Positions 11,494 to 27,585 of a stretch of 32,726 bases of DNA are shown here, in pieces (position 1 is the stretch's first letter; each line of letters opens with the position of its first letter). Source of the DNA: Solirubrobacterales bacterium (lineage in GTDB: Bacteria; Actinomycetota; Thermoleophilia; Solirubrobacterales; 70-9); contig JBMSXD010000001.1 of the NCBI GenBank assembly GCA_049425265.1, positions 1-32,726 on the forward strand, written 5' to 3'. Below the pieces are notes generated by a model. It ran no database searches, was not told the DNA's origin, and saw only the letters and a program-made list of their open reading frames with translations. The translations under genes and the position numbers were made by a program.

Positions 11494-12447
11494 TCAGTCG
11501 CCGAGGCCCTCGTCCCTCAGGTACCACTCGGAGTCGAGTGCGCCCTGGCAACCGGACCCGGCCGCAGTGACCGCCTGCCGATAGGTGTGGTCGACCAGAT
11601 CGCCGACCGCGAAGACCCCCGCGAGGTTGGTCCGGGTCGAGCCGGGCTCGACCTTCACATAGCCGCCATCGTCGGTGTCGACCTGGCCGGTAACCAGTTC
11701 GGAGCGCGGGATATGACCGATCGCAACGAAGGCACCGTCGACCTCGAAATCCTCGACTTCGCCATTGTCGGCCTTCCTCAACCGTACGGCCGCCAGGGCC
11801 CCGTCGTCACCGGCGATGAACTCCTCGGGGACCCATGGCGTGCGCACCGTGATCTTCGGGTTGTCCTCGACCCGCTGCTGCATGATCTTCGAGGCGCGGA
11901 ACTCGTCCCGTCGGTGGACCAGCTCCAGACTCGAGGCAAACTTCGAGACGAAATCGGCATCCTCCATCGCCGAGTCCCCGCCGCCGATCACCATCGTCCG
12001 GCGATCCTTGAAGAAGGCCCCGTCGCAGACCCCACAGGTCGAGACGCCCCTACCGGTGAGCTCCATCTCCCCGGGAATTCCGAGCCTCCGGGGCTCGGCC
12101 CCCATTGCGAGGATCACCGTGTGGGCCTCGTACTTCTCGTCGCCGAGGATCGCCCGGTGGACGTCTCCGTCGGAGAGCTCGAGCTTTTCGACGTCATCGG
12201 AGATGAATCGGGTACCGAATCGCTCCGCCTGCTCACGGAACCTGGTCATCATCTCCGGACCCATGATCCCCTCCGGGAAGCCCGGGAAGTTCTCGACGTC
12301 CGTGGTGTTCTGGAGCTGTCCGCCCCACTCGAAGCCCTCGAACAACAGGGGCTCGAGTTCGGCTCGAGCGGCATAGATCGCCGCGGTGTAGCCGGCCGGG
12401 CCACCGCCGACGATGATCACTTTCTCAGTCCCGCTCGTTTCGGCCAT
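11494..12447 (-). CDS. trxB: Thioredoxin-disulfide reductase (low-Mr TrxR)
   Basis: 'VIIVGGGPAGYTAAIYAARA', redox motif 'CGVCDGAFF', NADPH motifs 'VIGGGDSAMEDA' and 'HRRDEFRA', and C-terminal 'GDLVDHTYRQAVTAAGSGCQGALD'. Confidence 0.92.
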   Translation of the reverse strand: MAETSGTEKVIIVGGGPAGYTAAIYAARAELEPLLFEGFEWGGQLQNTTDVENFPGFPEGIMGPEMMTRFREQAERFGTRFISDDVEKLELSDGDVHRAILGDEKYEAHTVILAMGAEPRRLGIPGEMELTGRGVSTCGVCDGAFFKDRRTMVIGGGDSAMEDADFVSKFASSLELVHRRDEFRASKIMQQRVEDNPKITVRTPWVPEEFIAGDDGALAAVRLRKADNGEVEDFEVDGAFVAIGHIPRSELVTGQVDTDDGGYVKVEPGSTRTNLAGVFAVGDLVDHTYRQAVTAAGSGCQGALDSEWYLRDEGLGD

Positions 12448-12521
12448 CTCGTTCCTTTCGAAGACCCGGTTGACCCGGGTGAGGCACTTTACTTAATGAA
12501 GTGGCGGAGCGTCACCCGGCC
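12448..12521 (-). promoter_or_regulatory. trxB leader/promoter region containing an AT-rich inverted repeat and a small hairpin
   Basis: A locally AT-rich island holds the inverted repeat CACTT-N9-AAGTG (12485-12503). On the minus strand there is a candidate -10 TAAAGT 18 nt after GTGACG. A 6-bp stem hairpin ACCCGG/CCGGGT sits at 12464-12480, and AAGGA lies before the ATG. Confidence 0.3.
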
Positions 12522-13625
12522 TCACGGTCCAGTTGCCGCCATGTCGCTGGAGGGGTTCCTGTCGATCGGCAGGCCCTTCGTCTTCCAGCCCTTGACCGTC
12601 TGTCGGAGCTGGACGAAGGCAACGACACCGAACGGGATCGGCAGCCAGAAGGCGATCAGTCGGTAGATCAGAACGGCCGCGAAGACGCCGGCCTCGGGAA
12701 GGCCGAAGAGGACGAAGGTCCCGATCATCCCGGCATCGACCGCGCCGACCCCGGCCGGCACGAAGGGGATCAGGTTGGCGGTCAGACCGATGAAGAAACC
12801 GAGGACGACCACGCCGAAGGTGACCGGTACCCCGAGTGCGAGGAATGAGGCCCAGAGGATGCCCACATTCGCCGCCCAGAACCCGACCGCACCGAAGAAG
12901 GCGAGGCCGGCCTTGCCCGGTGTCGCAAGCAGGCGGAGGGCATCGCGGAGCCGGGCGGTCAGGATGCGCCCACCGCGACGGTGACCGGCCAACTGCCTCA
13001 GTCGCCGTTCGATGTCGGCCGGTACGAGAGCCACTGCCAGACCTACAAGCATCACGAGGCCCGCGACTGCGGCCGGGACGATCGTCAGGCCGCTGGCCGT
13101 CGAGCCGCTCAAGACCCCGGTCTTCAACAGGACCCCGAAAACGATGATCGCGAGCGGGTAGAAGATGTAGTGGAGGGCGATGAAGGCGACCATCCGGGTC
13201 GCGACGTCACGTCGGCCCATGCCACCCTGCCGAAGGGCCCAGTAGGTGAGCACCACTCCCCCCGCCCCTCCGGCGGAGAAGATCAGGGTGGCTGCGAATC
13301 CGGCCATGTTTATTTCGTAGGCCTCGCGGATCGTGATCGGGAAGTCGTGACCACCGACCACGGAGCGAAACAGGGCGATGTAGGCGACGAAGGAGAGGAC
13401 CCCGCAGACCAGGGCGACCCCGACCCAGAACGGGTTCGCCGTCCCGACGGTCGTTATCGCATCGCCGAAGCCGGCCAGCTTGGGAAGGAGGAAGTTGATC
13501 CCGACCACCAGGATCACGATCAGGAGGGCCGACTGCACCGCTGCCTGGGTCGAGATGGTCGGGAGGTCGGGCCCCTCTTCCTCCGCCTCCGGTCGGTCCG
13601 CTTCCTCCCCCTCCCCCTTTTCCAC
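12522..13625 (-). CDS. Lysylphosphatidylglycerol-synthase-TM-region-like (YbhN/UPF0104 'flippase-like') membrane protein
   Basis: 367 aa and polytopic, with an acidic N-terminal tail followed by 'LPKLAGFGDAITTVGTANPFWVGVALVCGVLSFVAYIALFRSV', typical of the LPG_synthase_TM family. It starts 3 nt after the PAP2 gene stop. Confidence 0.72.
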   Translation of the reverse strand: MEKGEGEEADRPEAEEEGPDLPTISTQAAVQSALLIVILVVGINFLLPKLAGFGDAITTVGTANPFWVGVALVCGVLSFVAYIALFRSVVGGHDFPITIREAYEINMAGFAATLIFSAGGAGGVVLTYWALRQGGMGRRDVATRMVAFIALHYIFYPLAIIVFGVLLKTGVLSGSTASGLTIVPAAVAGLVMLVGLAVALVPADIERRLRQLAGHRRGGRILTARLRDALRLLATPGKAGLAFFGAVGFWAANVGILWASFLALGVPVTFGVVVLGFFIGLTANLIPFVPAGVGAVDAGMIGTFVLFGLPEAGVFAAVLIYRLIAFWLPIPFGVVAFVQLRQTVKGWKTKGLPIDRNPSSDMAATGP

Positions 13626-13628
13626 TGC

Positions 13629-14606
13629 TCAGCCGCTCCCGTCGGCCGCCACGGCCTCGAGCTGTCTCAGACCACCGTTCACCAGCGCCGTGAAGGGCCT
13701 GGCCAAGGGCTCGCCCTTCCTGACCAGCAGCACGATGGCAAGGCCTGCGAGGAGGTCGACCACGTAGTGCTCACCGAGGTAAACGAGGGCGAAGCCCAGG
13801 GTTCCCGCATAGACCCAGCCAAGTGCTCCCTGGACCTTCCCCCCTGACTCGGAGAGGAGGATCGCCGCCATCACCGAGGTCGCGAAGTGGAGCGACGGCA
13901 TGGCCGCCCAGGGATTCGACCCGAGGGTCCCGAAGATCCTGGTCCAGGCCGGCCCCCAGAGCCTCTCCCCGAACTCGACCATGACCCGCTTGACCTCCTC
14001 ATCGGTATGGCCGTTCTCCGACGCCCACCAAGGTGGCGCTGTCGGAGCGGCGAAGTAGACGACGCACCCGAGGTCGAAGACGGCCGCCATCTGGCGGGCC
14101 GAATGCGGGAAGGCATCGCGGTCTCGGAGCAGGATCCAGAACAGGGCCAGGTAGGGCTGGACAAACCAGAGCCAGTGGGTCCAGGCCGAGATCCGGGTCA
14201 GGACCCCCCCGGCCGGACCATCGTGCAGCAGTCGCTGGAGTCGCGCGTTGGGAAGGACACCCCGTCCGATCCACCGGTCGGCGACGATCGGGTAATCGAT
14301 CAGGAGCCTTCGTCTGAGTCGTGTCGGATTGTCGTAGGGGAGCTCATGGGTTACGGCGAAGGCCCACATCTGCCCGAGGAACAGGGCAACATCCCGTCGG
14401 CGCGAACGGGGCCAGAGGACCGCGATCGCAGCCGGTGCGAGCACCGTAGAGGCGACCGTGACCGCGGCCGGAATCCGAAGCTGGCGGCGAATGTGGGGAA
14501 CCACGACCGCGGCAGCCAGCGCGGTGACGGAGGCCGCCCTGAGCAGGGTCGAGGCCGTCGACCGTCTCCTTCGCCCGGGTCTGGGCTGGAGCAACGAACG
14601 GAGCAT
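13629..14606 (-). CDS. PAP2 superfamily (PAP2_3 / inositol-phosphoceramide-synthase-like) membrane protein
   Basis: C-terminal motifs 'AMPSLHFATS' and 'YLGEHYVVDLLAG' (PSxH ... HxxxD). I set the start at ATG 14604-14606 ('MLRSLLQ'). The longer ORF to 14843 would overlap the divergent subunit II-like gene. Confidence 0.72.
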   Translation of the reverse strand: MLRSLLQPRPGRRRRSTASTLLRAASVTALAAAVVVPHIRRQLRIPAAVTVASTVLAPAAIAVLWPRSRRRDVALFLGQMWAFAVTHELPYDNPTRLRRRLLIDYPIVADRWIGRGVLPNARLQRLLHDGPAGGVLTRISAWTHWLWFVQPYLALFWILLRDRDAFPHSARQMAAVFDLGCVVYFAAPTAPPWWASENGHTDEEVKRVMVEFGERLWGPAWTRIFGTLGSNPWAAMPSLHFATSVMAAILLSESGGKVQGALGWVYAGTLGFALVYLGEHYVVDLLAGLAIVLLVRKGEPLARPFTALVNGGLRQLEAVAADGSG

Positions 14607-14684: not shown

Positions 14685-14690
14685 TAGAAT
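14685..14690 (+). promoter_or_regulatory. TAGAAT (-10-like hexamer) overlapping the first ATG of the subunit II-like gene
   Basis: The sequence 'gcaTAGAATGgcc' is seen directly. This is one of only three TAGAAT hexamers I found by eye on either strand of the window. Confidence 0.25.
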
Positions 14691-15507
14691 GGCCACGCTC
14701 GTGGTGCTCTCCCGGAGAAAGCCGCTGCCCCTCGCCGTGGCCGCGATCGGAACCGTCGCGGCCGTCCTGATCGGTGCCGATCCGGCATCGGCCCTCTCGC
14801 TGAACCCGGATGCGATCTCGCCCGGGATCGCCAAGGGCAACACCCTTCACACGATCATGTTCGTCGTGATCGTGCTCGGGATCCTCGTGGTCAACCTCGC
14901 GATCCTGAGGGCGGTCCGCCCGCGTCATCGCTACGTCGAGGCCGAGGAGGTCGAGAGACCGAGCCGCTCGGGTCGTGTTGGGATCCTGCTCTCCCTGGTC
15001 GCCGTGGCGATCTTCGTCGTGGCGACCGTCTACACCTCTGCTTCCCGCGAGGTTCCCGAAAGCCGCGCGTCGGTCGATGGGACCCTCGAGGACGGCTCCC
15101 TCCGGATAACGGCAACCGGCCAGCAGTGGCTCTGGCGATTCAGTTACCCGAACGGTGCCTTCGGCTACCACCGACTGGTCGTACCGAAGGGCGTAACGAT
15201 CTCGCTCGAGCTGACTTCGAGCGACGTCGTCCATGGCTGGAACGTTCCCCCGCTCACCGGCAAGGCGCAGGCCGTTCCGGGCCAGACCCACCAGATCAGC
15301 TTCCGCGCCGACGAGGAGGGAACCTTCCGCGGCTGGGCATCCGTACTCTCGGGACAGGGCTACGCCGACATGGAATCGGTGGTCGAGGTCGTCCCGCCCG
15401 ATGAGTACCTGACCTACATCCGACGGCTCAAGAGGGAGATTCAGGGTGCTCAGGACATCGTCGAGGGCCAGGTCCAGGCCCAGGCCAGAAGGGCGATGAA
15501 CCAGTGA
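14689..15507 (+). CDS. Heme-copper oxidase subunit II-like cupredoxin protein lacking the CuA cysteines
   Basis: Two N-terminal TM segments plus a cupredoxin domain colinear with CtaC ('QQWLWRFSYP', 'DVVHGWNVP'). The CuA loop reads 'GWASVLSGQGYADM' where CtaC has 'ICTELCGAGHSVM'. The start is uncertain: ATG 14689, or GTG 14701/14704 if the mRNA is leaderless. Confidence 0.75.
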   Translation: MATLVVLSRRKPLPLAVAAIGTVAAVLIGADPASALSLNPDAISPGIAKGNTLHTIMFVVIVLGILVVNLAILRAVRPRHRYVEAEEVERPSRSGRVGILLSLVAVAIFVVATVYTSASREVPESRASVDGTLEDGSLRITATGQQWLWRFSYPNGAFGYHRLVVPKGVTISLELTSSDVVHGWNVPPLTGKAQAVPGQTHQISFRADEEGTFRGWASVLSGQGYADMESVVEVVPPDEYLTYIRRLKREIQGAQDIVEGQVQAQARRAMNQ

Positions 15508-17444
15508 GCGAGGAAGACGAGACGGGCATGGAAGGTCAGGAGGAGGAAACAGGGGCGGCCCCGGAAGAGGCTGTGGCCGAGGAAGAAGCCGCAACGGCTG
15601 AGACTCCCCCCGACGCATCCGGGGAAGAAGCCACCGTTACGGAGTCCACCGTTACGGAGTCCGAGGCGGAAATCACCGTCGTGGACTCCGGGGAGGAAGT
15701 CACCACTGTCGAGCAGTCTGAGGATGCGGCCGACCCCTCCCCCGACGCTGGGCTCTATCCCAAGACCGAACCGATCCCCAGGCCGGAGGTATCGGTCGAG
15801 GGCGAACCGGGGCCAAGGCAGCGCTGGATCGAACTCGCGACCAGCGCCGACCACAAGGACATCGGTCGAATACTCATCGGCACCTCCGTCGGCTCCCTCT
15901 TTCTTGCGGCCGTGCTCCTGGTGCTGCTCCGGCTCCAGCTGGCCATCCCCGAAAACGGCTTCCTCGAGCCGGTCACGTTCGACCGGTTGCTCTCGCTCTA
16001 CGGGGCAACAGCGATCTTCTTCTTCCTCCTGCCGCTCTTCTTCGGACTCTTCTACTTCCTGGTGCCCCTGATGATCGGGAGCCGGGGGACCGCCCTTCCC
16101 CGGCTGGGTCAGGTCGGCATGTGGCTGATCCTGCTCGGTGGGGTACTGCTCTACTCGACCATCCTCTACACGCCACCGGAAGCAGGGATCAACCCGCTTC
16201 CGCCGCTCTCGGAGCTCGCCTTCACCTCGAACAACGGGGTCGACGCCTGGATCGCCGGGGTCGGTTTGGCGACTCTCGGGTACATCCTGATCACGATCGA
16301 CCTGCTGGTGACGATCCGGCACCTGCGGGCCCCCGGGATGGCCTGGCGTCGGACGCCGGTTCTGGTCTGGACCGCCGCCGTGGTCACCTGGCTGTTCGCG
16401 ATCATCGGACCGATCTTCCTCGCCGCGGCGACGATGCTGATGATCGACCGTCGCCTAGGGGGAGGGTTCTTCACCGGTGGCGCGGGCGGGGCCCCGCTGC
16501 TCTGGCAGCACCTCTCGTACATCTTCTTCGCGGGGGTCTACGCGCTCACCGCGATCTCGGCACTCGGTGTGGCGACCGAAGTGATCCAGACATTCACCGG
16601 GCGGCGTTCTCCCGATCGCAAAGTGATCTTTGGATCGATGGTGGCGATCGCAGTGATGGGAACCCTTGCCTGGGGCCAAAACATGTACACGGCACCGATC
16701 GGAATCGGGGTCAAGTACTTCGCGATGTTCATGGCCATCGGCCTCATCGTTCCCTTCGGGCTGATCTACAACTCGTTGATTCGAGCGGTTTCCAGGTCCG
16801 ATTTCCACATGCGGGCCCCGCTTAGGTATGCGATGGGGGCGCTCTCGTTCGGCTCGATCGGACTCCTGGTCGAGCTCAGCCAGTCGACGATCGCGGTCGG
16901 TACCCAGCTCCAGCAGACCTACGACGCCTGGGCCGCGACCCACTTCGCGATGATCGGGTTCGGCCTGTTCGGAGGCCTCGCCGCCCTCAGTTACTGGTAC
17001 CCGAAGATGACCGGCCGGATGCTGAATGAGGACCGTGCCAGGAAGTCGTTCTGGCTCGTGGTCGGCGGCACGGCGATCGCCGTAGTGCCCCTGTTCGGTG
17101 CCGGCGTCGAGGGGCAGGTGACCGACGCCTTCCGGTTCGCGGAGGGTGAGGGAGTAAGCGCCTACAACCTGATCGCGACCCTTGGCACCCTGCTGCTCTT
17201 CCTGGGCATCGTCCTGACGATCGGGAACCTGATCCGCAGTCGGGTCGAGGAACCCCTGGCGCCCCCGGACCCCTGGCTCGGGGAGACGCTCGAGTGGCTC
17301 GCCCTCTCCCCGCCCCCAGCCCACAACTTCGATGAGCTGCCGGATGTCCGCAGCGAGGTCCCGCTGACCGACATCCGCGAAGTCCTGACCCGTTTAGACC
17401 GTGAGCGTGATCATGAAGCGCGCGAAACCGAGCCGGTAGCCTGA
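15504..17444 (+). CDS. Heme-copper oxidase subunit I-like 12-TM protein lacking heme/CuB ligands, with an acidic N-terminal extension
   Basis: Colinear with CtaD from 'ADHKDIG' to 'TLEWLALSPPPAHNFDELP', but 5 of the 6 ligand His are replaced (see findings). The GTG start overlaps the upstream TGA (GTGA). The first ~100 aa are Glu/Thr/Ala-rich, so the true start could be later. Confidence 0.8.
   Translation: MSEEDETGMEGQEEETGAAPEEAVAEEEAATAETPPDASGEEATVTESTVTESEAEITVVDSGEEVTTVEQSEDAADPSPDAGLYPKTEPIPRPEVSVEGEPGPRQRWIELATSADHKDIGRILIGTSVGSLFLAAVLLVLLRLQLAIPENGFLEPVTFDRLLSLYGATAIFFFLLPLFFGLFYFLVPLMIGSRGTALPRLGQVGMWLILLGGVLLYSTILYTPPEAGINPLPPLSELAFTSNNGVDAWIAGVGLATLGYILITIDLLVTIRHLRAPGMAWRRTPVLVWTAAVVTWLFAIIGPIFLAAATMLMIDRRLGGGFFTGGAGGAPLLWQHLSYIFFAGVYALTAISALGVATEVIQTFTGRRSPDRKVIFGSMVAIAVMGTLAWGQNMYTAPIGIGVKYFAMFMAIGLIVPFGLIYNSLIRAVSRSDFHMRAPLRYAMGALSFGSIGLLVELSQSTIAVGTQLQQTYDAWAATHFAMIGFGLFGGLAALSYWYPKMTGRMLNEDRARKSFWLVVGGTAIAVVPLFGAGVEGQVTDAFRFAEGEGVSAYNLIATLGTLLLFLGIVLTIGNLIRSRVEEPLAPPDPWLGETLEWLALSPPPAHNFDELPDVRSEVPLTDIREVLTRLDRERDHEARETEPVA
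15631..15660 (+). repeat. Perfect 15-bp tandem duplication (2 copies) inside the acidic N-terminal coding region
   Basis: CCACCGTTACGGAGT occurs at 15631-15645 and again at 15646-15660, encoding 'TVTES-TVTES'. Confidence 0.9.
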
Positions 17445-17448
17445 TGTC

Positions 17449-18378
17449 ATGAGCGCTGACGCCACCGGTGCAGGAGTGCGCAGAAGGACTGAGTCGGGCA
17501 ACTCGCTGCTCGGCGACGTGGCGACAGTCGTCCTCGACTACCTGAGTCTGACCAAGCCGAGGATCATCAGCCTGCTTCTCCTGACCACGGTCGCGACGAT
17601 GTTCGTCGCCGATCCGAACGGGCCTTCGCTCTCGGTGATCCTCTGGACGATGCTCGGGGGCTACCTGGCAGCCGGGGGGGCAGGTGCGATCAACCACTAC
17701 CTCGACCGTGACCGGGACGCCCTTATGGCCCGGACCAGTGGGAGGCCACTGGTTACCGGGCGGATCGAGCCGATCAACGGCCTGATCTTCGGGATCGGCC
17801 TCGGGATTGCCGCCTTCGGACAGCTATGGATGACGGTCAACCTGCTGACCGCCGTACTCGCGATGGTCGGGCTGCTCGGCTACGTCCTCCTCTACACCCT
17901 CTGGCTGAAGCCCCTGACCCCGCAGAACATCGTGATCGGCGGCAGTGCCGGCGCGGTCCCGCCGCTGGTCGGCTGGGCAGCAGCCACGGGAACCCTCTCC
18001 TGGGAGGCCGCATGGCCCTTCCTGATCGTCTTCTTCTGGACCCCTCCCCACTTCTGGGCCCTCTCTTTGATGATCAAGGACGACTACGCCCGGACCGGCA
18101 TCCCGATGCTCCCGGTGGTCCGGGGTGAAGCCCACACCCGGCGCCAAATCCTCCTCTACGCGGTCGTCCTGCTGGCAGTGTCGCTCGGACCGGTCGCAAC
18201 CGGGCTGCTCGGGGGCCTCTACCTGGCCTCGGCCCTTGTCCTCGGGGTCGCCTTCATCGGGTTTGCCCTGCTGCTCGAGAGACGTGCCGGGGAGCGCCTT
18301 GCCCTGAGGACCTACATCTTCTCCCTCGCTTACCTTGCCCTGTTGTTCATCGCAATGGCCGTCGACGCGGTCGTCTGA
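17449..18378 (+). CDS. ctaB: Protoheme IX farnesyltransferase (heme O synthase)
   Basis: UbiA-type polytopic protein with 'YLSLTKPRIISLLLLTTVATM', 'GAINHYLDRDRDALMARTSGRPL' (NxxxDxxxD) and 'WTPPHFWALS'. Confidence 0.92.
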   Translation: MSADATGAGVRRRTESGNSLLGDVATVVLDYLSLTKPRIISLLLLTTVATMFVADPNGPSLSVILWTMLGGYLAAGGAGAINHYLDRDRDALMARTSGRPLVTGRIEPINGLIFGIGLGIAAFGQLWMTVNLLTAVLAMVGLLGYVLLYTLWLKPLTPQNIVIGGSAGAVPPLVGWAAATGTLSWEAAWPFLIVFFWTPPHFWALSLMIKDDYARTGIPMLPVVRGEAHTRRQILLYAVVLLAVSLGPVATGLLGGLYLASALVLGVAFIGFALLLERRAGERLALRTYIFSLAYLALLFIAMAVDAVV

Positions 18379-18508: not shown

Positions 18509-18811
18509 ATGGCCGACGAGTCCAGCCAGCCAACCATTCCCGAGCCGACGGAGACGATCCGCCTGCCGGCACCGTCCTGGGCACCGGCCGTCCTCGCCTT
18601 CGGGATCCTCGGAATCGTCGCGGGTGCCTTCGCGACCGGCTTCATGTTCCCACCGCTCTGGTTCGCGATCCTCGGAGCGTTCCTCGCGGTTTTCGCCCTT
18701 CGGAGCATGATCCGACGCGGCGTCCGGTCGTTCTACGGGCTCCCGCGTGAAGAGGATCAGCCGCGAGCGGAGATCCCGGTCGACAGCTTCGGTCCACCCC
18801 GTCTGGACTGA
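18509..18811 (+). CDS. Hypothetical 2-TM membrane protein (100 aa)
   Basis: Two hydrophobic helices ('APAVLAFGILGIVAGAFATGF', 'LWFAILGAFLAVFALRSMI') with high-GC3 codon usage. It is tightly packed after the 37-aa ORF. I recognised no family. Confidence 0.6.
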   Translation: MADESSQPTIPEPTETIRLPAPSWAPAVLAFGILGIVAGAFATGFMFPPLWFAILGAFLAVFALRSMIRRGVRSFYGLPREEDQPRAEIPVDSFGPPRLD

Positions 18812-19352: not shown

Positions 19353-20063
19353 ATGAGTCGTCGTTCCCTCACCCTCAAGACTCTCTCGACCCTTTCGGCG
19401 GGCGGACTCCTCATCGCGCTTGCCTCCGGATGCGGGACCGAGAGTTCGGCCGAGATCTCAGGCGGCTTCCAGGACAGGGGCCGTCAGATCTTCAACTCCA
19501 AGTGCGGGACCTGTCATAAGCTGGCTCAGGCGGCGAGCCAGGGTAACCAGGGACCCAACCTCGATACTGCCTTCGCCGCGGCCCGAGCTGCCGGAATGAG
19601 CGAGGACACCGTGAAGGGAGTGGTGCTCTACCAGATCTACCATCCCCGTCCTTCGGTCAAGGGTTACCCCGGCGTCTCGATGCCGGCGAACATAGTCACC
19701 GGCAACGACGCCGAGGACGTAGCCGCCTACGTCGCCCGTTACGCGGGTGTCCCGGGTGCCAAACCGCCGATCGCCCCGGGTGAAGGTCCAGGTGCCCAGG
19801 TGTATGCGAATCAGGGCTGTGGCTCCTGCCATATTTTCGCCGCCGCCGAATCGGCCGGTGTCCTCGGGCCCAACCTCGACGAGTACATCCCGAAGATGTC
19901 CAAGGCTCAGATCAAGCAGGCCATCACCAACCCGAGCGCAACCAAGGCGAAGGGGTACGAGAACGCCGTGATGCCAAATCGCTGGGCTAACCTCCCGCCG
20001 AAGGAACTCGACGAGCTAGTCAACTTCCTCGTCGATTACGCCGCCGGACCCGGCGGGAACTGA
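19353..20063 (+). CDS. Di-heme class I c-type cytochrome, probable lipoprotein
   Basis: Signal peptide ending 'LIALASGCG' (lipobox-like). Two heme-binding motifs, 'CGTCH' and 'CGSCH', each followed by a candidate Met ligand ('VSMPAN', 'AVMPNR'). Confidence 0.85.
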   Translation: MSRRSLTLKTLSTLSAGGLLIALASGCGTESSAEISGGFQDRGRQIFNSKCGTCHKLAQAASQGNQGPNLDTAFAAARAAGMSEDTVKGVVLYQIYHPRPSVKGYPGVSMPANIVTGNDAEDVAAYVARYAGVPGAKPPIAPGEGPGAQVYANQGCGSCHIFAAAESAGVLGPNLDEYIPKMSKAQIKQAITNPSATKAKGYENAVMPNRWANLPPKELDELVNFLVDYAAGPGGN

Positions 20064-20091: not shown

Positions 20092-21042
20092 GTGGCCGCC
20101 CGCTTGAAGAACCTCTCGATCTCTCCGGAGACCTACTCGAAGGTCGCCGGGGCCGCCCTCGTCGCGCTGATCCTGATCGTCTTCACCGGATCGGCGGTGC
20201 GTCTGACCGCCTCGGGGCTCGGCTGCCCCGACTGGCCCCGCTGCTACGGCGAATACATCCCGCCCAGCCAGCTGAACGCCTGGATCGAGTTCGGGAACCG
20301 GATGTTGACCGGCCTGGTCGGTCTGGCCGTGGTCGCCGCCTCCCTGCTCGCCTTCTTCCGGCGACCCTTCCGGTGGCATCTGGCAGCGTTCGGCGCTCTG
20401 CTGCCCCTCGGGGTGATCGGACAGGTCATGCTCGGTGCCTTCGTGGTCGAGTACCACCTGCCGCCGGAACTGGTGATCGGACACTTCATCCTCTCGATGA
20501 TCCTGCTCGACGCGGCCTTCGTGCTGTTCTGGTGCTCTCGCTACGAGCCCGGTGAACGTCGCTTCTCGACCGATGTCTTCGGGGTGTGGTCGGTCAGGGC
20601 CCTGATTCCACTCGGCCAGCTAACGGTGCTCCTGGGAACGATCACGACGGCGTCCGGGCCACACCCCGGTGACCACGATCGTGAGCTGGTCCAGAGGTTC
20701 GACTTCAAGGGGCCCGAAACGCTCGAGTGGATCGTCCAGCGACACGCGACGATGGCCGTCCTGTTCGGGCTTGGGACCCTTGTAGTGCTGGCGATCCTGA
20801 TGCGTCGGGGGGGTGACCGCAGGGCAGTCAGGCCCGTCTCGGTCGTTGCCGGTCTGATCGGCTTCCAGATCGCACTCGGGATAACCCAGTGGCTCCTCGA
20901 GCTGCCTGCGATCCTGGTCTGGTTCCACGTGGTGACCGCAACCCTGATCTGGGTCGCGGTGCTCTGGGCGGTCGCGACGGCCGGCCAGATCGACTACGCA
21001 CGGGGACGAGCGCCTGCCCGTGCCGCGCCGGGGGTATCCTGA
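20092..21042 (+). CDS. ctaA: Heme A synthase (COX15/CtaA family)
   Basis: 8-TM protein with 'GSAVRLTASGLGCPDWPRCYG' and conserved His in the TM helices ('HFILS', 'HPGDHD', 'WFHV'). Confidence 0.88.
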   Translation: MAARLKNLSISPETYSKVAGAALVALILIVFTGSAVRLTASGLGCPDWPRCYGEYIPPSQLNAWIEFGNRMLTGLVGLAVVAASLLAFFRRPFRWHLAAFGALLPLGVIGQVMLGAFVVEYHLPPELVIGHFILSMILLDAAFVLFWCSRYEPGERRFSTDVFGVWSVRALIPLGQLTVLLGTITTASGPHPGDHDRELVQRFDFKGPETLEWIVQRHATMAVLFGLGTLVVLAILMRRGGDRRAVRPVSVVAGLIGFQIALGITQWLLELPAILVWFHVVTATLIWVAVLWAVATAGQIDYARGRAPARAAPGVS

Positions 21043-21417: not shown

Positions 21418-21741
21418 CTAGCCGTCCTCGGAATCCCCGTCGCGGCCAGTTGGCGGCCCCTCCGGCCCCTCGCCCTCGAGCGTGTCGGTCCCACGGAGCC
21501 TCCGCCAGGCGCCCCGCATGGCGACGACCGAGACGAAGGCCCCCAGCAGCAGCGCAGCGATGAACCCGACCGTGGACGAGATCAACTTGGCGAGGAGGAT
21601 GACCAAGGCGGCGGCAACGATCACCGCAACGACCCATCTGAACGCGGCCTGTTCGGACTCGAGCGGGTTGCCCAGCCTGAACCTCCGATCTGACCGGCCC
21701 TCGGTCAGAGGATGTAGATCGTCGTGAACACCACGACCCAC
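21418..21741 (-). CDS. Hypothetical 2-TM membrane protein downstream of ctaE (possible small oxidase subunit)
   Basis: Two hydrophobic helices ('FRWVVAVIVAAALVILLAKLI', 'VGFIAALLLGAFVSVVAM') and an acidic tail. GTG 21741 would overlap ctaE by 37 nt, and the only later in-frame candidates are CTG/GTG, so the start is uncertain. Confidence 0.45.
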   Translation of the reverse strand: MGRGVHDDLHPLTEGRSDRRFRLGNPLESEQAAFRWVVAVIVAAALVILLAKLISSTVGFIAALLLGAFVSVVAMRGAWRRLRGTDTLEGEGPEGPPTGRDGDSEDG

Positions 21742-22340
21742 ATGATGTCCACGAAGTGCCAGTAGATGCCGGGCACTTCGACACCCAGGTGGTCCTTCTC
21801 GGCGGGGCCGAAGTGGCCGCGGAAGGCCCTGATGTTCGCGAAGGTCAACAACAGCAGGCCGACGAATACGTGGGCCCCGTGAAGTCCAGTGAGGCTGAAG
21901 AAGATCGAGCCGAAGGCGCCGTCAGCAGGCGAGAAACCGATGTGGATGTACTCGTTGATCTGGATGAAGAGGAAGGTCACACCGAGCAACCAGGTCATCA
22001 CAAGCCCCAGCTTCAGTCCGTTGTGGTTGTTGTGCCGGATCGCCTCCAGCGCGTAGTGCACGGTGAAGCTCGAGGAGATCAGGATGACCGTGTTGATCCC
22101 GGCGATAAGGACAGGCAGTTCGATCCCGACCGGAGGCCAGGTATCGGGGCCGACGACGACCCGGAGGAAGAAGTAGGCCGCGAAGAAGCTTGCGAACAGC
22201 ATTACCTCCGAGAGGATGAAGAGGAGGATCCCGAGGATCGTCTGATCGATCCGGGCGCTCTGGTTAGCCTCGGGAGGACCGTGGTGGTGGTCCTCGGCGG
22301 GGGTCGCGTGACCGGTTGTGGCGACGCTGGCGCTCTCCAT
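21705..22340 (-). CDS. ctaE: Cytochrome c oxidase subunit III
   Basis: 'FFSLTGLHGAHVFVGLLLL' and C-terminal 'VEVPGIYWHFVDIMWVVVFTTIYIL' are canonical COX3 blocks. Confidence 0.92.
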   Translation of the reverse strand: MESASVATTGHATPAEDHHHGPPEANQSARIDQTILGILLFILSEVMLFASFFAAYFFLRVVVGPDTWPPVGIELPVLIAGINTVILISSSFTVHYALEAIRHNNHNGLKLGLVMTWLLGVTFLFIQINEYIHIGFSPADGAFGSIFFSLTGLHGAHVFVGLLLLTFANIRAFRGHFGPAEKDHLGVEVPGIYWHFVDIMWVVVFTTIYIL

Positions 22341-23215
22341 CAGACCTCCACCCCAGCTTCCTCGCCGTCTCCGGCCGCGACCGCGGCGACCACGGTCTCC
22401 CCGGCGCGCCCTGCCTCATGATGGGAAACCGGTTTGTCGGTGAACTCCCGGACCCGCCCGATCAGGTCGTCTTTGAGCCATTGGGACTCGTCCCCGGGCA
22501 GGGTCGAAATCAGGATGTCATCCACCTGGTAGAACTCGATCGCATTCTTGACCGCGGAGAACGGGTCCGAAGCGAGCGGCTGGCCCGTCGCGTCGACATC
22601 GCTCTCGTAGAGCCTCGCCATCAGTCCCGCCAGCCCCCGGGTGACCGCTGCCTGGGGTACTCCCTCGGTCGATGGGGCGATGATCGTGTACCTGTGGGGG
22701 CTCTCGGCAGCCCTTGCCAGCAGGCGATCAGCAAGATCGGGACTCGAAAGGGTCTGGTTGCCGATCACCAGGGTGTGGGTTACGTCCTGACGGACCGAGT
22801 CGTCCTCGATCCGAACCGGAATGTGGGTCACCGTGGTGCCGGGGGCGAATTCACCCTTGGCCCACTCGACCAGGTCTCGCCTCGCGAAGCCGAACCTCGT
22901 CTCGTACAGGCATGAGAGCAGGACCTCGGACGGTCGATGGCTCCTGACCGCGTCCCCGAGCGCTAGCTCGGGGGCCGGATCGAGAACCTCGCCGACCGCC
23001 TCGATACCGAACTCCTCGAGAACTGCAAGGGTGACCTCGACCCGGCTGCGTGCAGCCTGGGCCGTCTCCTCCGGAGAAGTGATCTGGCCGGCGGTCGGGC
23101 GGTTGGCAGGGGCTACGGCCACCACGTACGAGGCTTCCGGCGCCCGTTCCTGGGCGGCACCCAGGAGTTTCCGGCCACCGGCAACCTCATTCAGGAATAG
23201 GAGCAGGGGCCGCAC
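22340..23215 (-). CDS. Uncharacterised soluble protein made of two tandem alpha/beta (USP/HUP-like) domains, embedded between ctaD and ctaE
   Basis: The internal duplication is visible by eye (aa 3-133 vs 146-265). The GTG start is 3 nt after the ctaD stop, and the TGA overlaps the ctaE ATG (TGATG). High-GC3 codon usage. Confidence 0.7.
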   Translation of the reverse strand: MRPLLLFLNEVAGGRKLLGAAQERAPEASYVVAVAPANRPTAGQITSPEETAQAARSRVEVTLAVLEEFGIEAVGEVLDPAPELALGDAVRSHRPSEVLLSCLYETRFGFARRDLVEWAKGEFAPGTTVTHIPVRIEDDSVRQDVTHTLVIGNQTLSSPDLADRLLARAAESPHRYTIIAPSTEGVPQAAVTRGLAGLMARLYESDVDATGQPLASDPFSAVKNAIEFYQVDDILISTLPGDESQWLKDDLIGRVREFTDKPVSHHEAGRAGETVVAAVAAGDGEEAGVEV

Positions 23216-23218
23216 CGG

Positions 23219-25132
23219 TTACGTGGCGGCAGGTACGGTCGACGGCTTCGGCTCCGGGACGGTCGCCTCCGAGTCCTCGTCGCCCATGATTGCGTGCCTG
23301 GCGCCAGGCGTCCCATACTCGTAGGGACCGCCGACGACCCTCGGGATTTCATCGAAGTTGAAGGTAGGAGGCGGTGAGGAGACGAGCCACTCGATCGTCT
23401 TCGACCTCCAGGGGTTGCCGCTCGCCCTGGGGCCGTACTTCCAGCTGACCACCATGTTGTAGAGGAAGACCAGCTGCGCAAGCCCGAGGATCAGGGAGAA
23501 GAAGCTGATCACAAGGTTCCACTCCCCGAACTGGCTGGCGTAGTCGGCGACCCTCCGGGGCATCCCCTCGAGACCGATCCAGTGCTGTGGAATGAAGGTC
23601 CCCCAGGTGCCGATCATCGTGCCCCAGAAGTGAATCCGGCCGAGCCGTTCGTCGTACATCCGGCCGGTCATCTTCGGGAACCAGTAGTAGATCCCGGCGA
23701 AGATCGTGAACACCGAGCCGCCGAACAGGACGAAGTGGATGTGGGCGACGACGAAGTACGTGTCGGACATGTGGATGTCGAGCGGAACCATCCCGAGCAT
23801 CACGCCACTGATCCCTCCCACCGTGAAGGTCACGATGAACCCGAGGGCGAACAGCATTGCCGTCGAATAGGTGTGGATCTTGCCGTAGAAGAGGGTTCCC
23901 AGCCAGGAGAAGATTTTGATCCCAGTCGGGACCGCGATCAGCAGGGTCGTAATCATGATCGGGACCCGCAGCCAGGAGAACATCCCGGCCACGAACATGT
24001 GGTGGGCCCAGACCGAGTAGGAGAGGACGACGATCCCGAGCAGGGCGAGGGCCATCAACCGGTAGCCGAAGATCGGTTTCCGGGCGTTGGTCGCGATTAC
24101 CTCAGAGATGATCCCGAAGCCGGGCAACATCATGATGTAGACCGCCGGGTGTGAGTAGAACCAGAAGATGTGCTGGTAGCTGAGGACGTCACCGCCTTCG
24201 AGGAAGTTGAAGAAGTTCATCCCCATGATCCGGTCGAAGAGGACCATGAACTGGACCCCCGCGATGAACGGGGTGGCCCCGACCACGATCAGCGAAGTCG
24301 AGAGGTTCGCCCAGACGAGCAGGGGCATACGCCACAGGTTCATCCCGGGCGCACGCATGGTGATGATCGTGACCAGGAAGTTGAGCGCGGTCGCGATCGA
24401 GGACGCCCCGGCGAACTGGACACCTACATTGAAGAAGCTCTGCCCCAGCGGTGCCCCGGTCGATAACGGTGCATAGCCGGTCCAGCCTGCATCGAACGAG
24501 CCACCCGGCGCCAGGAAGCTGCCCATGAAGATCAGCCCGGCGATCGGCAGCAACCAGAAGCTGAGGGCGTTCAACCTCGGGAAGGCCATGTCGGGCGCCC
24601 CGATCATGATCGGCAGCACGTAGTTGGCGATCCCGGCGAACATCGGGATGATGAACAGGAAGATCATCACCGTCGCGTGGGTCGAGAACAGTCCGTTGTA
24701 GACGTTCGGGTCGACGATCTGGGTCCCGGGCTGGGCCAGCTCGGCCCGGATCAGCATCGCCAGAAGTCCACCGACGAAAAAGAAGAAGAAGGTGGTGACG
24801 ATGTACTGAATGCCGATGACCTTGTGGTCGGTGTTGAAGGTGAAGTAGTCCTGCCATCGGGTGGCACCGTGGCCGGAATGGTCATCGGGAACGGTCGGCT
24901 TGCCCGCTGCCCAGCGGAACCAGTAGGAGAAGGCTCCGAAGCCGATCAGGAAACCGAAGGGCGCAGTGATCAGCGGGACCACGACCTGTGGGTACCCGGT
25001 CTGCTCGGTCTGGAAGGCGTCGAGTCCGGAAACGAGCCTGAGAATTACGACCAGGCCGAAGCCGAATGCGGCCCCGATCAAGGCCCCGAGGGCTCCCCGA
25101 TACCAGCCGGGCTCTCTCAAAGCATGTGCCAT
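23219..25132 (-). CDS. ctaD: Cytochrome c oxidase subunit I, A2-type, with an extra N-terminal 2-TM extension
   Basis: All six ligand His are present ('FSTHATV', 'YSHPAVY', 'WAHHMF', 'VAHIHF'), together with 'GMPRR' and 'PTGIKIFSW'. Confidence 0.95.
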   Translation of the reverse strand: MAHALREPGWYRGALGALIGAAFGFGLVVILRLVSGLDAFQTEQTGYPQVVVPLITAPFGFLIGFGAFSYWFRWAAGKPTVPDDHSGHGATRWQDYFTFNTDHKVIGIQYIVTTFFFFFVGGLLAMLIRAELAQPGTQIVDPNVYNGLFSTHATVMIFLFIIPMFAGIANYVLPIMIGAPDMAFPRLNALSFWLLPIAGLIFMGSFLAPGGSFDAGWTGYAPLSTGAPLGQSFFNVGVQFAGASSIATALNFLVTIITMRAPGMNLWRMPLLVWANLSTSLIVVGATPFIAGVQFMVLFDRIMGMNFFNFLEGGDVLSYQHIFWFYSHPAVYIMMLPGFGIISEVIATNARKPIFGYRLMALALLGIVVLSYSVWAHHMFVAGMFSWLRVPIMITTLLIAVPTGIKIFSWLGTLFYGKIHTYSTAMLFALGFIVTFTVGGISGVMLGMVPLDIHMSDTYFVVAHIHFVLFGGSVFTIFAGIYYWFPKMTGRMYDERLGRIHFWGTMIGTWGTFIPQHWIGLEGMPRRVADYASQFGEWNLVISFFSLILGLAQLVFLYNMVVSWKYGPRASGNPWRSKTIEWLVSSPPPTFNFDEIPRVVGGPYEYGTPGARHAIMGDEDSEATVPEPKPSTVPAAT

Positions 25133-25145
25133 CAGCTCGCTCCAA

Positions 25146-25985
25146 TCATGACTGAGTCACGTTGTCCCGCGTCGTCTCCTCGACACCGCTGCCACCGATC
25201 CCGCCTTCCGCCTTTTGAATCTGTCTCTGGATCTCGAGCGCCTGGTCGGCCGTCAGGATGAGGCCCGTCGGCACCTTTTCGTCCAGTTCCTTTACCCAGC
25301 GGTTGAATTTCTTCACCGGCTCGACCACCACCTTGGCCCGCATAACCGAATGGCCAGCCCCGCAGAGCTCGGTACAGATCAGCTGGAAGGTACCGACCCG
25401 GTCCGGCGTGATGACCGCGTCCGTTGTGATCCCGGGCACGTTGTCCTTCTTGATCCGCCACTCGGGAACCCAGAACGAATGGAGCACGTCCTGGGCGTGC
25501 ATGTTGAAGACGACCTGCCGTCCCACCGGAACGTGGAACTCGCCCTCCGACCACTTGTTGCCCTCGGTGGGGTACCCGAAAGTCCAGGCGAACTGCTGGG
25601 AGTAGACGTTGACGATCAGTGGGTCGGAGTCGACCTCCTCGATGTCATCGAGGACGGCCCAGCTGTACCCGGCCGCGAACAGGACGATGATCGTCGGGAT
25701 GATCGTCCAGATGAGCTCGAGCTTCGTATTGCCGTGGATCGGCAGGCCATCGCTCTCGTCGCCAGGCTTGACCCTCCAGCGGTAGAGGGCGTAGCCCAGG
25801 AAGACGCAGACGATCGCGAAGACGAAGGAGGAGATGATGATCATCCAGTCGAGCAGCGTGTCGATCGGGCCGGCCGCAGTGGACCCGGCCTCGCCGTTCC
25901 AGTCGATCTGGACCATCAGCACCGCGATGACGGCACCGATCGCGAGGGAGACGATCGCAAGTCTGAGGTAAGGGACCTTTGGCAT
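25146..25985 (-). CDS. ctaC: Cytochrome c oxidase subunit II (CuA-containing, no fused cytochrome c domain)
   Basis: Two N-terminal TM helices plus a cupredoxin domain with a full CuA site ('DVLHSFWVP' ... 'CTELCGAGHSVM'). There is no CxxCH motif. Confidence 0.93.
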   Translation of the reverse strand: MPKVPYLRLAIVSLAIGAVIAVLMVQIDWNGEAGSTAAGPIDTLLDWMIIISSFVFAIVCVFLGYALYRWRVKPGDESDGLPIHGNTKLELIWTIIPTIIVLFAAGYSWAVLDDIEEVDSDPLIVNVYSQQFAWTFGYPTEGNKWSEGEFHVPVGRQVVFNMHAQDVLHSFWVPEWRIKKDNVPGITTDAVITPDRVGTFQLICTELCGAGHSVMRAKVVVEPVKKFNRWVKELDEKVPTGLILTADQALEIQRQIQKAEGGIGGSGVEETTRDNVTQS

Positions 25986-26029: not shown

Positions 26030-27585
26030 TCACGGACCGGACGGCGGAAGCGGCCGGATCTCGCCGGCCGATGCCCGGATCACGTCCCGGGCCACCCCTT
26101 CCCAGCTCCAGTGGTGATCGGCCGAGGCGGCCAGGGCGAGTTCGAGCGCCGTGCGCTGTTCGCCGGAGGTCTCGAGCCACCGATCGAGCCGGGATGCGAT
26201 CTCGGGAACCGCATCCGGTCCGAGGTCGAAGGAGAGGAAGGGGGCGGCGGCGGGCACGTCTTTCGAGAGGGTCGCGGTGACCTCCTCGAGTCCGGAATGC
26301 CTTGCGCAGACGGGCAGCACCCCGGAGGCGGCAGCCTCGGCCGCGACCATTCCGAACGCCTCGGGGAAGGTGCTCGGTACGACCATCGAATCGGTCGACG
26401 GGACGAGTTCGGCGACCTCGTCGTGTTCGAGGCGCCCGGTGAACAGGATCGCCCCTGCCGATGATCGGGCCGAGGCCCGGTAGTCGGCCGGCGGCGCGGG
26501 CAGGCAGGCGGAGCGGCCAGGAAGTCGTCGAGCATCCCGAGCCTGCCGGCCGTGCCCCCTTCCAATCCCCGGCCCTCTGCGGCAATCGCCCGAGCGCCGG
26601 CGAGATCTCCCTCGGAGAGTCTTTCCACCAGGGCTTCGAGACCATCGGCGAACTCCCCGAACCCGGCGAACAGGAGGGTCGCCCCCGGGTGGTTACCGCG
26701 AACCATCGGCCAGGCCGCGGCCAGCAGGTCGGCCCCCTTGGAGACGATCAGCTTGCCGACAAAGACGACTCGGGGACCCTCCGAGTCGGCGAAGACCCGA
26801 ATTGCAGCCGAGGCCCTCGGGCGATCACGGCCTAGGCCGGAGCCACCGTTCCCGTCGGCGATCCGGTCGGCGAGCCCGGCGAGCAGGTCCCCGGCCTGCG
26901 AACGATCGATCGGGTGGAATCGCCGGGCATCCACACCGGGAGGCCCGAGGCCGGTCTTCTCCTCGAGGCCGATTCCCGGAATCGTCTGCCAGAGGCTTTC
27001 GGCCGTGTGGCGGGAGCCGACCAGGATCGCCGAGGCGCGGTCTAGGCCTTCCCGCGCCCAGGGGATGAAGCGCGGATTCGGCCGGATCGTGTATTCGAGG
27101 TCGGAACCGTGGTTCTTCACGGCGAACGAGGTGATCCCGGCCCGGGCCAGGATCGCCGGTCCCATTACCAGGTGGTTGGCGAGTGCTGCATCCGGCTCCC
27201 CCACCCGTTCGACTACTTCGCCCACCGCGCGGACGTTGGCCTCGACGTAGGCCTCGATCTCCCGATCCTCGAGCGACGGGAATGCCCTGGCATCGAACCC
27301 CTCATAGCGATCCTCTACGTAGACGGGAAGCAGCGTCCCGATCGGGGGCCGGTAGACCGTTACAGACCCCGGTCCGTCGCCTCCTCCCGAGGTCGTCACT
27401 GTCAGCTCACCGGCCTCCCAGTCGCCGACTGCATCGACCCAGTCGAAGCCGGCCGCATCGCGATCCTGGCAGAAGAGGTGGACTTCGTGGCCCAATCCGG
27501 CAAGGGCTCGGGCCAGGTTGGCGTTGTAGATGTTGCTCCCGGTGCCGCGCAGCAGGTAGCCGTGGAAGACCAGGATCCTCATCAC
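26030..27585 (-). pseudogene. GT4-family (GT-B) glycosyltransferase interrupted by a single frameshift
   Basis: The N-terminal frame (from 27585) is a good GT-B N-domain ('MRILVFHGYLLRGTGSNIYNANLARALAGLGHEVHLF') up to '...GRLGMLDDFL'. It then degenerates into Pro/Arg-rich nonsense. The true continuation, 'PPADYRASARSSAGAILFTGRLEHDEVAELVPSTDSMVVPSTFPEAFGMVAAEAAASGVLPV', lies in another frame that ends at 26030. The total span is 1556 nt, which is not a multiple of 3. Confidence 0.75.

Follow-up and report, generated by a model that had tools for sequence, protein, structure and literature searches.

The subject of this report is a pair of adjacent genes, COX2' and COX1', in a stretch of 32,726 nucleotides (the window) of contig JBMSXD010000001.1 from a Solirubrobacterales bacterium (assembly GCA_049425265.1), the source of which is described as a soil actinobacterium. 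COX2' (14686-15507, forward strand) is a paralog of subunit II, and COX1' (15504-17444, forward strand) a paralog of subunit I, of the heme-copper oxidases (HCOs), and both stand directly ahead of ctaB, the gene of heme O synthase. Together, the two genes (14686-17444) encode what remains of an A-family, aa3-type cytochrome c oxidase, a remnant of two subunits (II'-I'). It is without both CuA and CuB, the ligand of heme a3, one of the heme a ligands, the propionate Arg pair and the key residues of both proton channels. It keeps the 12-transmembrane (12-TM) fold, the pairing of its subunits, its place at the head of a ctaB (ancestrally ctaA-ctaB) operon, and purifying selection. A preliminary description of the window had proposed that COX1' is a maintained, non-redox membrane protein rather than a decaying pseudogene, a proposal that is supported here by substitution rates, by fixed replacement residues and by the fold.

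A subunit I and II pair stripped of its redox ligands

COX1' is an open reading frame (ORF) intact over 646 codons, with neither frameshift nor stop, and its GC content at third codon positions (0.84, against 0.66 overall) is usual for coding sequence here. The protein consists of a low-complexity N-terminus followed by the 12-TM HCO fold. The N-terminal extension, residues ~1-100 (15504-15803), is acidic and rich in Glu, Thr and Ala; it is limited to the nearest relatives, which are 620-646 aa long, against about 565 aa for most of the family. The Pfam COX1 profile (PF00115) matches COX1' with an E-value of 2.7e-71 and covers profile positions 2-435 of 436, and this homology across the full 12-TM core places the protein in the HCO superfamily. 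The window's own CtaD aligns with it colinearly by BLASTP (29% identity over 534 aa, E 2e-60), as the helix-by-helix comparison of the preliminary description had it, and in a phmmer search against solved structures its best relatives are actinobacterial CtaD proteins (C. glutamicum 7Q21, E 2e-70). An AlphaFold2 (AF2) model, built with 60 family members as input, has 12 TM helices and a pTM of 0.85, and superposes on CtaD structures with a TM score of 0.88 (Foldseek).

Within this preserved fold, five of the six invariant His ligands are absent. The helix II heme a His is replaced by Tyr166 (15999-16001), the CuB His of the helix VI HPxVY block by Ala343, and the helix VII CuB His-His pair by Gln392-Asn393 (16677-16682), the latter in 121/121 homologs. 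In helix X, the segment Ala478-Thr479-His480 (16935-16943) has Ala in place of the heme a3 His and retains the heme a His, His480, as the sole remaining ligand. The cross-linked Tyr has become Ala347 (Met in most homologs), and the invariant Tyr346 stands one residue before that column, out of register. The heme-propionate Arg-Arg pair is replaced by Thr540-Asp541 (17121-17126), of which the Asp is invariant, the D-channel entry Asp by Gly195, and the K-channel Lys by Ile421. The helix VI glutamate Glu359, equivalent to E286, is kept in 121/121 sequences. The canonical CtaD of the window reads HDWHYEHHTKHHRR over all ligand columns. The seven substitutions listed in the preliminary description were all found at the codons it gave, and alignment to PF00115, like the MAFFT and hmmalign alignments of hundreds of homologs, places no His at the five columns. 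A misalignment masking the His residues was considered and rejected, since the columns came out the same with BLASTP, with phmmer on PDB chains, with MAFFT in its auto and L-INS-i modes, and with hmmalign against the canonical profile.

COX1' thus lacks the six-His set, the cross-linked Tyr and the D- and K-channel residues that characterize a functional A-family oxidase (aa3, caa3 or bo3). It equally falls outside the nitric oxide reductase (NOR) families (cNOR, qNOR, eNOR, bNOR, sNOR, gNOR and nNOR), its ligand columns being non-His where a NOR is expected to carry a high-spin heme His and three metal-B ligands, either His or His/Asp (PMC11214002). Against the NCBIfam CtaD_CoxA equivalog it scores 334.3 bits, with a cutoff of 670.75; this is a soft test, as the intact CtaD of the window also falls marginally short (655.9).

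COX2' comprises a signal/TM region and a cupredoxin domain (Pfam COX2, E 1.6e-16), and is without a c-type cytochrome domain. Its ORF opens at 14458, and the Met at 14686 is the likely start because homolog ORFs are 272-281 codons long. The stop codon of COX2' and the start codon of COX1' overlap by 4 nt (GTGA). The CuA site is lost: the two Cys are replaced by Ala/Ser and by Ser, and the second His by Tyr, with the first His and the Met retained. The motif reads 'GWASVLSGQGYADM' against a canonical 'LICTELCGAGHSVM', and the region as a whole 'HGW...ASVLSGQGYADM' against H...CxELCxxxHxxM, so that COX2' is not a CuA-type subunit II. Its score against NCBIfam CoxB is 128.5 bits, for a cutoff of 147.7. 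In 31/31 loci with a degenerate COX1 that were compared, Ser/Ala, Ser and Tyr/Phe occupy the positions of the two Cys and the second His, and all canonical-COX1 loci compared carry the full CuA motif CxxxCxxxHxxM. The loss of CuA in subunit II is coupled to the loss of ligands in subunit I, in exactly the same genomes.

Conservation and origin of the pair

Among 5.8 billion proteins searched, COX1' has at least 120 homologs, with 58-98% identity among the matches listed. Those listed with a source name come from Solirubrobacterales, Thermoleophilia or Actinomycetota metagenome-assembled genomes (MAGs), except one labelled Acidobacteriota, and their automatic names are 'cytochrome c oxidase subunit I' or 'cbb3-type', an annotation that inflates the aerobic capacity inferred for MAGs. 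Among 121 aligned sequences, the helix II His column is Tyr and the second Arg column is Asp without exception, and the heme a3 His column is Ala in 118, the same number in which His480 is present. A scan of GTDB with one genome per species found the degenerate form at 32 loci (L001-L031 and L067), at 46-96% identity. The ligand replacements are the same in 32 species-level Solirubrobacterales genomes and in some 120 protein clusters, and the replacement residues and loop motifs stay invariant across lineages as far as 46% identity.

The ratio of nonsynonymous to synonymous substitutions (dN/dS; Nei-Gojobori, TM core of COX1') is 0.041 against locus L031 (dS 0.54) and 0.099 against L001 (dS 0.92), far below 1. 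These values lie within the range found at the same loci for ctaB (0.07 and 0.10), ctaA (0.035 and 0.11) and ctaC (0.07 and 0.13), and COX2' gives 0.11-0.18. The COX1'/COX2' pair is under strong purifying selection, and a plain pseudogene was rejected on the grounds of these ratios, the intact ORF and the conserved replacement residues. Divergence is much quicker in COX1' than in the intact CtaD: within one and the same genome pair the identities are 57% and 82%. With cofactor residues lost, the fold kept and purifying selection in force, COX1' has the attributes of a pseudoenzyme. In two MAGs of the Microflora-Danica (MFD) set, COX1' lies in two frames (L026, 10395-10447; L067, 10993-11007). 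These splits are probably assembly indels and not decay, because neighbouring genes are also split in other MFD loci (L017 and L030), and they were set aside as a sign of decay.

The origin of the pair can be followed through gene order. The degenerate and the canonical clades have in common the arrangement LPG-synthase (reverse strand), PAP2 (reverse strand), COX2, COX1, [CtaA], CtaB and CBS (reverse strand), with another complete oxidase operon after it. In Conexibacter, Patulibacter and Solirubrobacteraceae, cultured strains included, the COX2-COX1 pair in this slot is fully canonical, the same-slot pairs (L032-L080) having HDWHYEHHTKHHRR at the ligand columns and an intact CuA motif. The closest ligand-complete relatives of COX1' are these same-slot proteins, at 33-37% identity versus 29% for the CtaD of the window. 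Because gene order is shared and the closest ligand-complete relatives are found there, COX2'-COX1' is orthologous by position to an ordinary ctaC-ctaD pair at the head of a heme A biosynthesis operon.

Sister Solirubrobacterales sublineages occupying the same slot have gone further. In P0122, a cluster of 62 member sequences, and in P0124, all six His are lost, with Phe/Phe or Leu/Trp at positions 166 and 480, and most of the polar residues typical of the window's clade are missing as well (457 is Lys, 474 is Phe, and 346 is Val or Phe). P0126, also in this slot, shows a different partial loss of ligands and has a subunit II that is still CuA-competent. A single slot thereby presents a natural degeneration series, from canonical (Conexibacter) through the loss of four to five His to the loss of all six, which can be used for studying the non-catalytic roles of an oxidase core in assembly, heme A trafficking and supercomplex architecture.

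The residues that changed were examined by comparing 30 degenerate sequences (29 loci and the ORF of the window) with 48 canonical positional orthologs. Identical in both groups are 111 positions, mostly in loop and helix-end motifs, and the shared motifs ADHK, LRAPGMxWRR, YWYPKMTG and LEW..SPPP.NFD lie outside the catalytic core. A further 41 positions are conserved within each group but switched between them, and 24 that are invariant in the canonical group are released in the degenerate one. Several switches in the core go from small to large residues, namely Gly to Leu454 and Gly to Glu457 in the helix IX GG motif (which we take to lie near heme a3), Gly to Thr257, Ala to Leu306 and Val to Tyr346; these appear consistent with a filling and re-stitching of the emptied heme and CuB space. 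New polar or acidic residues of the degenerate group are Glu457, Asp474, Thr479, Gln538 and Asp541. The former binuclear and propionate region is lined by residues invariant in the window's clade (Glu359, Glu457, Asp474, Asp541, Gln392 and Asn393). Over 97% of homologs have Tyr166, and over 97% have His480; P0122, P0124 and L029 have neither, the replacement pairs among the sister sublineages being Phe/Phe, Leu/Trp and Gly/Gly; L027 keeps Tyr166 and has Ser at 480.

Surrounding genes and other ligand-deficient lineages

The ctaB gene (17449-18378, forward strand; Pfam UbiA, E 1.2e-63) scores 357 bits against the NCBIfam heme o synthase equivalog, above its cutoff. It starts 4 nt past the COX1' stop, the adjacency is kept at all loci examined, and COX1' and ctaB are in the same operon. 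Downstream lies an ORF of 100 aa with two TM segments and the motif LPxPSWAP (18509-18811, forward strand), a possible further member of the operon, for which no significant Pfam match and no NCBIfam assignment were obtained. Matches to it were found by tblastn in 30/32 loci of the degenerate clade, at 33-99% identity, and none in the short L013 and L027. Small ORFs resembling it were also called after ctaB in L083, L088 and L089. Its motif resembles the 'PSPWP' N-terminal helix of 7-TM subunit III, a helix that the 5-TM COX3 of the window is without. Next come a diheme c-type cytochrome (19353-20063, forward strand; Pfam Cytochrom_C and Cytochrome_CBB3) and ctaA, the heme A synthase gene (20092-21042, forward strand; Pfam COX15-CtaA, E 1.1e-26). 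In the deepest-branching loci L029, L030 and L067, a CtaA-like ORF stands between COX1' and ctaB (~11650-12950), and in the window's subclade ctaA has shifted to a place downstream of the diheme cytochrome c gene.

A ligand-complete, canonical aa3-type oxidase operon occupies 21705-25985 on the reverse strand. It comprises ctaC (25146-25985), ctaD (23219-25132; the preliminary description had given no strand for this gene), a gene of 291 aa (22340-23215) and ctaE/COX3 (21705-22340), all on that strand. This second, intact operon, 4 kb away from the pair, performs respiration. At the N-terminus its CtaD is extended by about 95 aa, and this extra stretch, which precedes the conserved DHK motif, contains two hydrophobic segments. 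The 291-aa protein, between ctaD and ctaE, is apparently soluble, occurs at the same position in all related loci at 35-97% identity, and has no Pfam or NCBIfam match. Beyond the operon, a GT4 glycosyltransferase gene (26054-27585, reverse strand) is frameshifted near 26506-26536 when compared with intact homologs (the 517-aa ORF of L004, L052 and L067), its N-terminal ~200-370 residues being in frame -3 and its C-terminal part in frame -2. The contrast drawn earlier between this broken gene and the intact COX1' thus stands; the frameshift could be that of a true pseudogene or an assembly indel.

Ligand-deficient subunits I are not confined to the window's clade. In an HMMER search of 1.84 billion representatives, of which the best 150 were listed, 115 had full coverage (the query and the window's CtaD counted), and among these 48 (about 40%) are without at least one His ligand and 30 without at least three; because the query was itself degenerate, such sequences are over-represented in the list, and the fractions are not population estimates. 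Ligand-deficient COX1 lineages in metagenomes form several clades, which differ in their replacement residues and operon partners (COX3', alternative complex III, or a longer UbiA). A neighbour-joining tree of the representatives is crude and prone to long-branch attraction, and was not used to count independent origins. A UbiA/CtaB gene adjoins 8 of the 12 other lineages inspected.

One separate clade consists of L085 (P0154), L092 (P0180) and a JGI contig with P0187. In these, four to five His are lost in P0154 and P0180 and three in P0187, and the COX1 gene is followed by a long UbiA-family gene (338-411 aa), with stop/start overlap in two of the three; no canonical oxidase genes were seen within ~5 kb of them. 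In L085, the ligand-deficient COX1 is preceded by a COX2 with a deleted CuA loop. A different arrangement is found in L084 (P0149) and L087 (P0223), which have CtaB, a COX1' with three to four His lost, COX3', a membrane protein with a cupredoxin-like C-terminal region, and then a canonical caa3-type ctaC-ctaD(-ctaE); their flanking genes (DUF2017 and ClpS) look actinobacterial. In L081 and L082 (P0169; GCA_039809495.1), the COX1 gene belongs to a cluster of alternative complex III (ActC/ActD/cyt c), COX2, COX1, COX3 and COX4, and its product has Gln for one CuB His, Ala for the heme a3 His, and no Arg-Arg pair.

Possible functions and relation to known systems

The conservation of a nearly cofactor-free subunit I and II pair over dozens of species implies that the HCO scaffold serves some purpose other than redox chemistry on which selection can act. 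The preliminary description had suggested a scaffold, an assembly or heme-handling factor, or a channel. We tentatively favour, at somewhat less than even confidence, a scaffold in oxidase biogenesis. The II'-I' pair, presumably unable to reduce O2 or NO, would act in the membrane as a permanent mimic of apo-subunit I, docking heme O synthase (CtaB) and heme A synthase (CtaA), and/or would pass heme A on to the true CtaD. Tyr166 and His480 would then bridge helices II and X at the former heme a iron site, or might transiently hold one heme. The UbiA/CtaB neighbour of 8 of the 12 other ligand-deficient lineages inspected speaks for such a role. CtaA and CtaB have been proposed to form a complex, and CtaA may bind apo-subunit I for the delivery of heme A (PMC9145763), and Cox15 has been reported in association with Cox1 assembly intermediates in work cited in PMC5249081. 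A broader proposal, in which cofactor-free HCO-fold proteins are a recurrent pseudoenzyme class of Actinomycetota, tied to heme O and A synthases and organizing, as such mimics, heme A synthesis and delivery, is possible but doubtful; it would answer the old question of how bacteria hand heme A to subunit I.

Several points weigh against a scaffold in heme A delivery. In Paracoccus, a stable association of CtaA with subunit I is unconfirmed (PMC5249081). The ctaB linkage is inherited from the canonical ancestor; because canonical orthologs share it, it is not independent evidence of a heme A function, and what might have passed for proof was downgraded to a suggestive, ancestral trait of this clade. 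Confidence of the AF2 model is lowest at ~460-480 and 530-550, the former heme-propionate region of COX1', and all carriers of the degenerate form are uncultured MAGs. The polar residues Glu359, Glu457, Asp474, Asp541, Gln392 and Asn393 could, moreover, mark a new ion or substrate site.

The last of these points is the basis of a channel or transporter, in which the emptied cavity would serve as a binding site or a conduit for protons or a hard cation (Mg2+, Ca2+, Mn2+ or Fe). The six residues and Tyr346, which vary little or not at all in the window's clade, line the cavity in place of canonical Gly, Phe, Arg and His, and Glu359 is universal in the alignment. However, both the D-channel Asp and the K-channel Lys are lost, and the Lys457, Phe474 and Val/Phe346 of same-slot P0122 and P0124 mean that the cluster is not a family-wide requirement, which weakens it as a family-wide active site and makes a channel very improbable. 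Because these sister sublineages have neither the Tyr/His pair nor the polar cluster, a structural function is more likely for the family as a whole than a new catalytic or transport site. A single-heme protein, a carrier, buffer or sensor of heme O or A with one heme ligated by Tyr166 and His480 at the old heme a site, is in our view quite improbable. The joint retention and joint replacement of Tyr166 and His480 would fit it, as would the adjoining ctaB and the retention of Arg143, presumably the heme a formyl partner and the equivalent of bovine R38. But Arg143 is uninformative, as it is also retained in lineages without both Tyr and His; L027 has the Tyr without the His, and the invariant Asp of the Thr-Asp replacement should repel heme propionates. 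A hydrogen bond from Tyr-OH to His-N across the former iron position would explain the co-variation equally well. A redox enzyme with unconventional ligands (Tyr, Gln, Asn, Glu or Asp) at a non-heme metal centre is scarcely credible. Other HCO families do accept single ligand changes, such as the Asp for one CuB His in gNOR (PMC11214002), but here Ala stands where the catalytic heme would have its proximal ligand, the partner subunit has neither a CuA electron-entry site nor a c-type cytochrome domain, and sister lineages lose the remaining residues too.

Two further explanations dispense with a heme A role. A structural or regulatory module acting with the intact aa3 oxidase or a bc-type complex is unlikely in our judgement. 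An intact ctaC-ctaD-x-ctaE operon lies 4 kb distant in every locus, the pseudo-pair is without a subunit III of its own, the surface and loop motifs in common with canonical CtaD are kept, and the closest solved structures are CtaD proteins of obligate actinobacterial III2-IV2 supercomplexes; many pseudoenzymes, besides, are known to pair with active paralogs. Such a module leaves the coupled retention of subunit II' unexplained, and P0154, P0180 and P0187 have no canonical oxidase genes close by. That the ORFs have no function at the protein level, being kept only against polarity on an essential ctaB or as a slowly decaying relic, has a probability close to negligible. The 4-nt spacing to ctaB, the faster divergence of COX1' than of CtaD, and the split high-scoring segment pairs at L026 and L067 would agree with it. 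Selection against polarity alone predicts a dN/dS of about 1, however, and the observed 0.04-0.10 equals that of ctaB and ctaA, which largely refutes it; the replacement residues and loop motifs are invariant down to 46% identity, the splits suggest assembly indels, and within the same window it is GT4 and not COX1' that shows a frameshift.

The six His ligands are what defines the HCOs, and the heme/metal-B centre is, to our knowledge, present in all families described so far (A, B, C and the NORs). The preliminary description held that no HCO family lacking the ligands had been described. Our full-text search of the open-access literature found no description of ligand-less HCO subunits, which agrees with it, but the protein is not unique, as metagenomes hold many ligand-deficient COX1. 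Judged by its residues, the COX1'/COX2' pair is a pseudoenzyme derivative of an A-family oxidase, and it can be set beside several known systems. A duplicated catalytic subunit kept as a structural partner is known from cytochrome bd. There, CydB and the CydA' of archaeal cydAA' (bioRxiv 10.1101/2021.01.16.426971) offer the nearest conceptual analogue of II'-I'. Cytochrome bd belongs to an unrelated superfamily, and its degenerate copy sits within the complex of the active copy. For subunit II, the likeness is to the quinol oxidases, whose CyoA (E. coli bo3) also has the CuA Cys and His of the cupredoxin subunit replaced; the gNOR subunit II is CuA-less as well (PMC11214002). In both of these, however, subunit I is active, in quinol oxidases with electrons received from quinol, whereas in II'-I' subunit I is dead too.

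The actinobacterial A1-type aa3 CtaD (C. glutamicum 7Q21 chain D; M. smegmatis 6HWH and 6ADQ) resembles COX1' in its 12 TM helices, its pairing with subunit II, its linkage to ctaB, and the motifs ADHK, RAPGM, YW(F/Y)PKMTG and LEW..SPPP.HNF. COX1' differs from these proteins at five of the six His columns, at the cross-linked Tyr and the Arg-Arg pair, and at the key positions of the K channel (Lys) and the D channel (Asp), all of which carry other residues, and it is predicted to be unable to bind a binuclear centre. The ctaC1-ctaD1 pair of Conexibacter, Patulibacter and Solirubrobacteraceae shares the slot and gene order of II'-I', but keeps every ligand and CuA. Finally, the other ligand-deficient COX1 proteins (P0126, P0149, P0154, P0180, P0187, P0223 and P0169) are full-length like COX1' and have two to six His absent, and differ from it in their replacement residues and in their operon partners.

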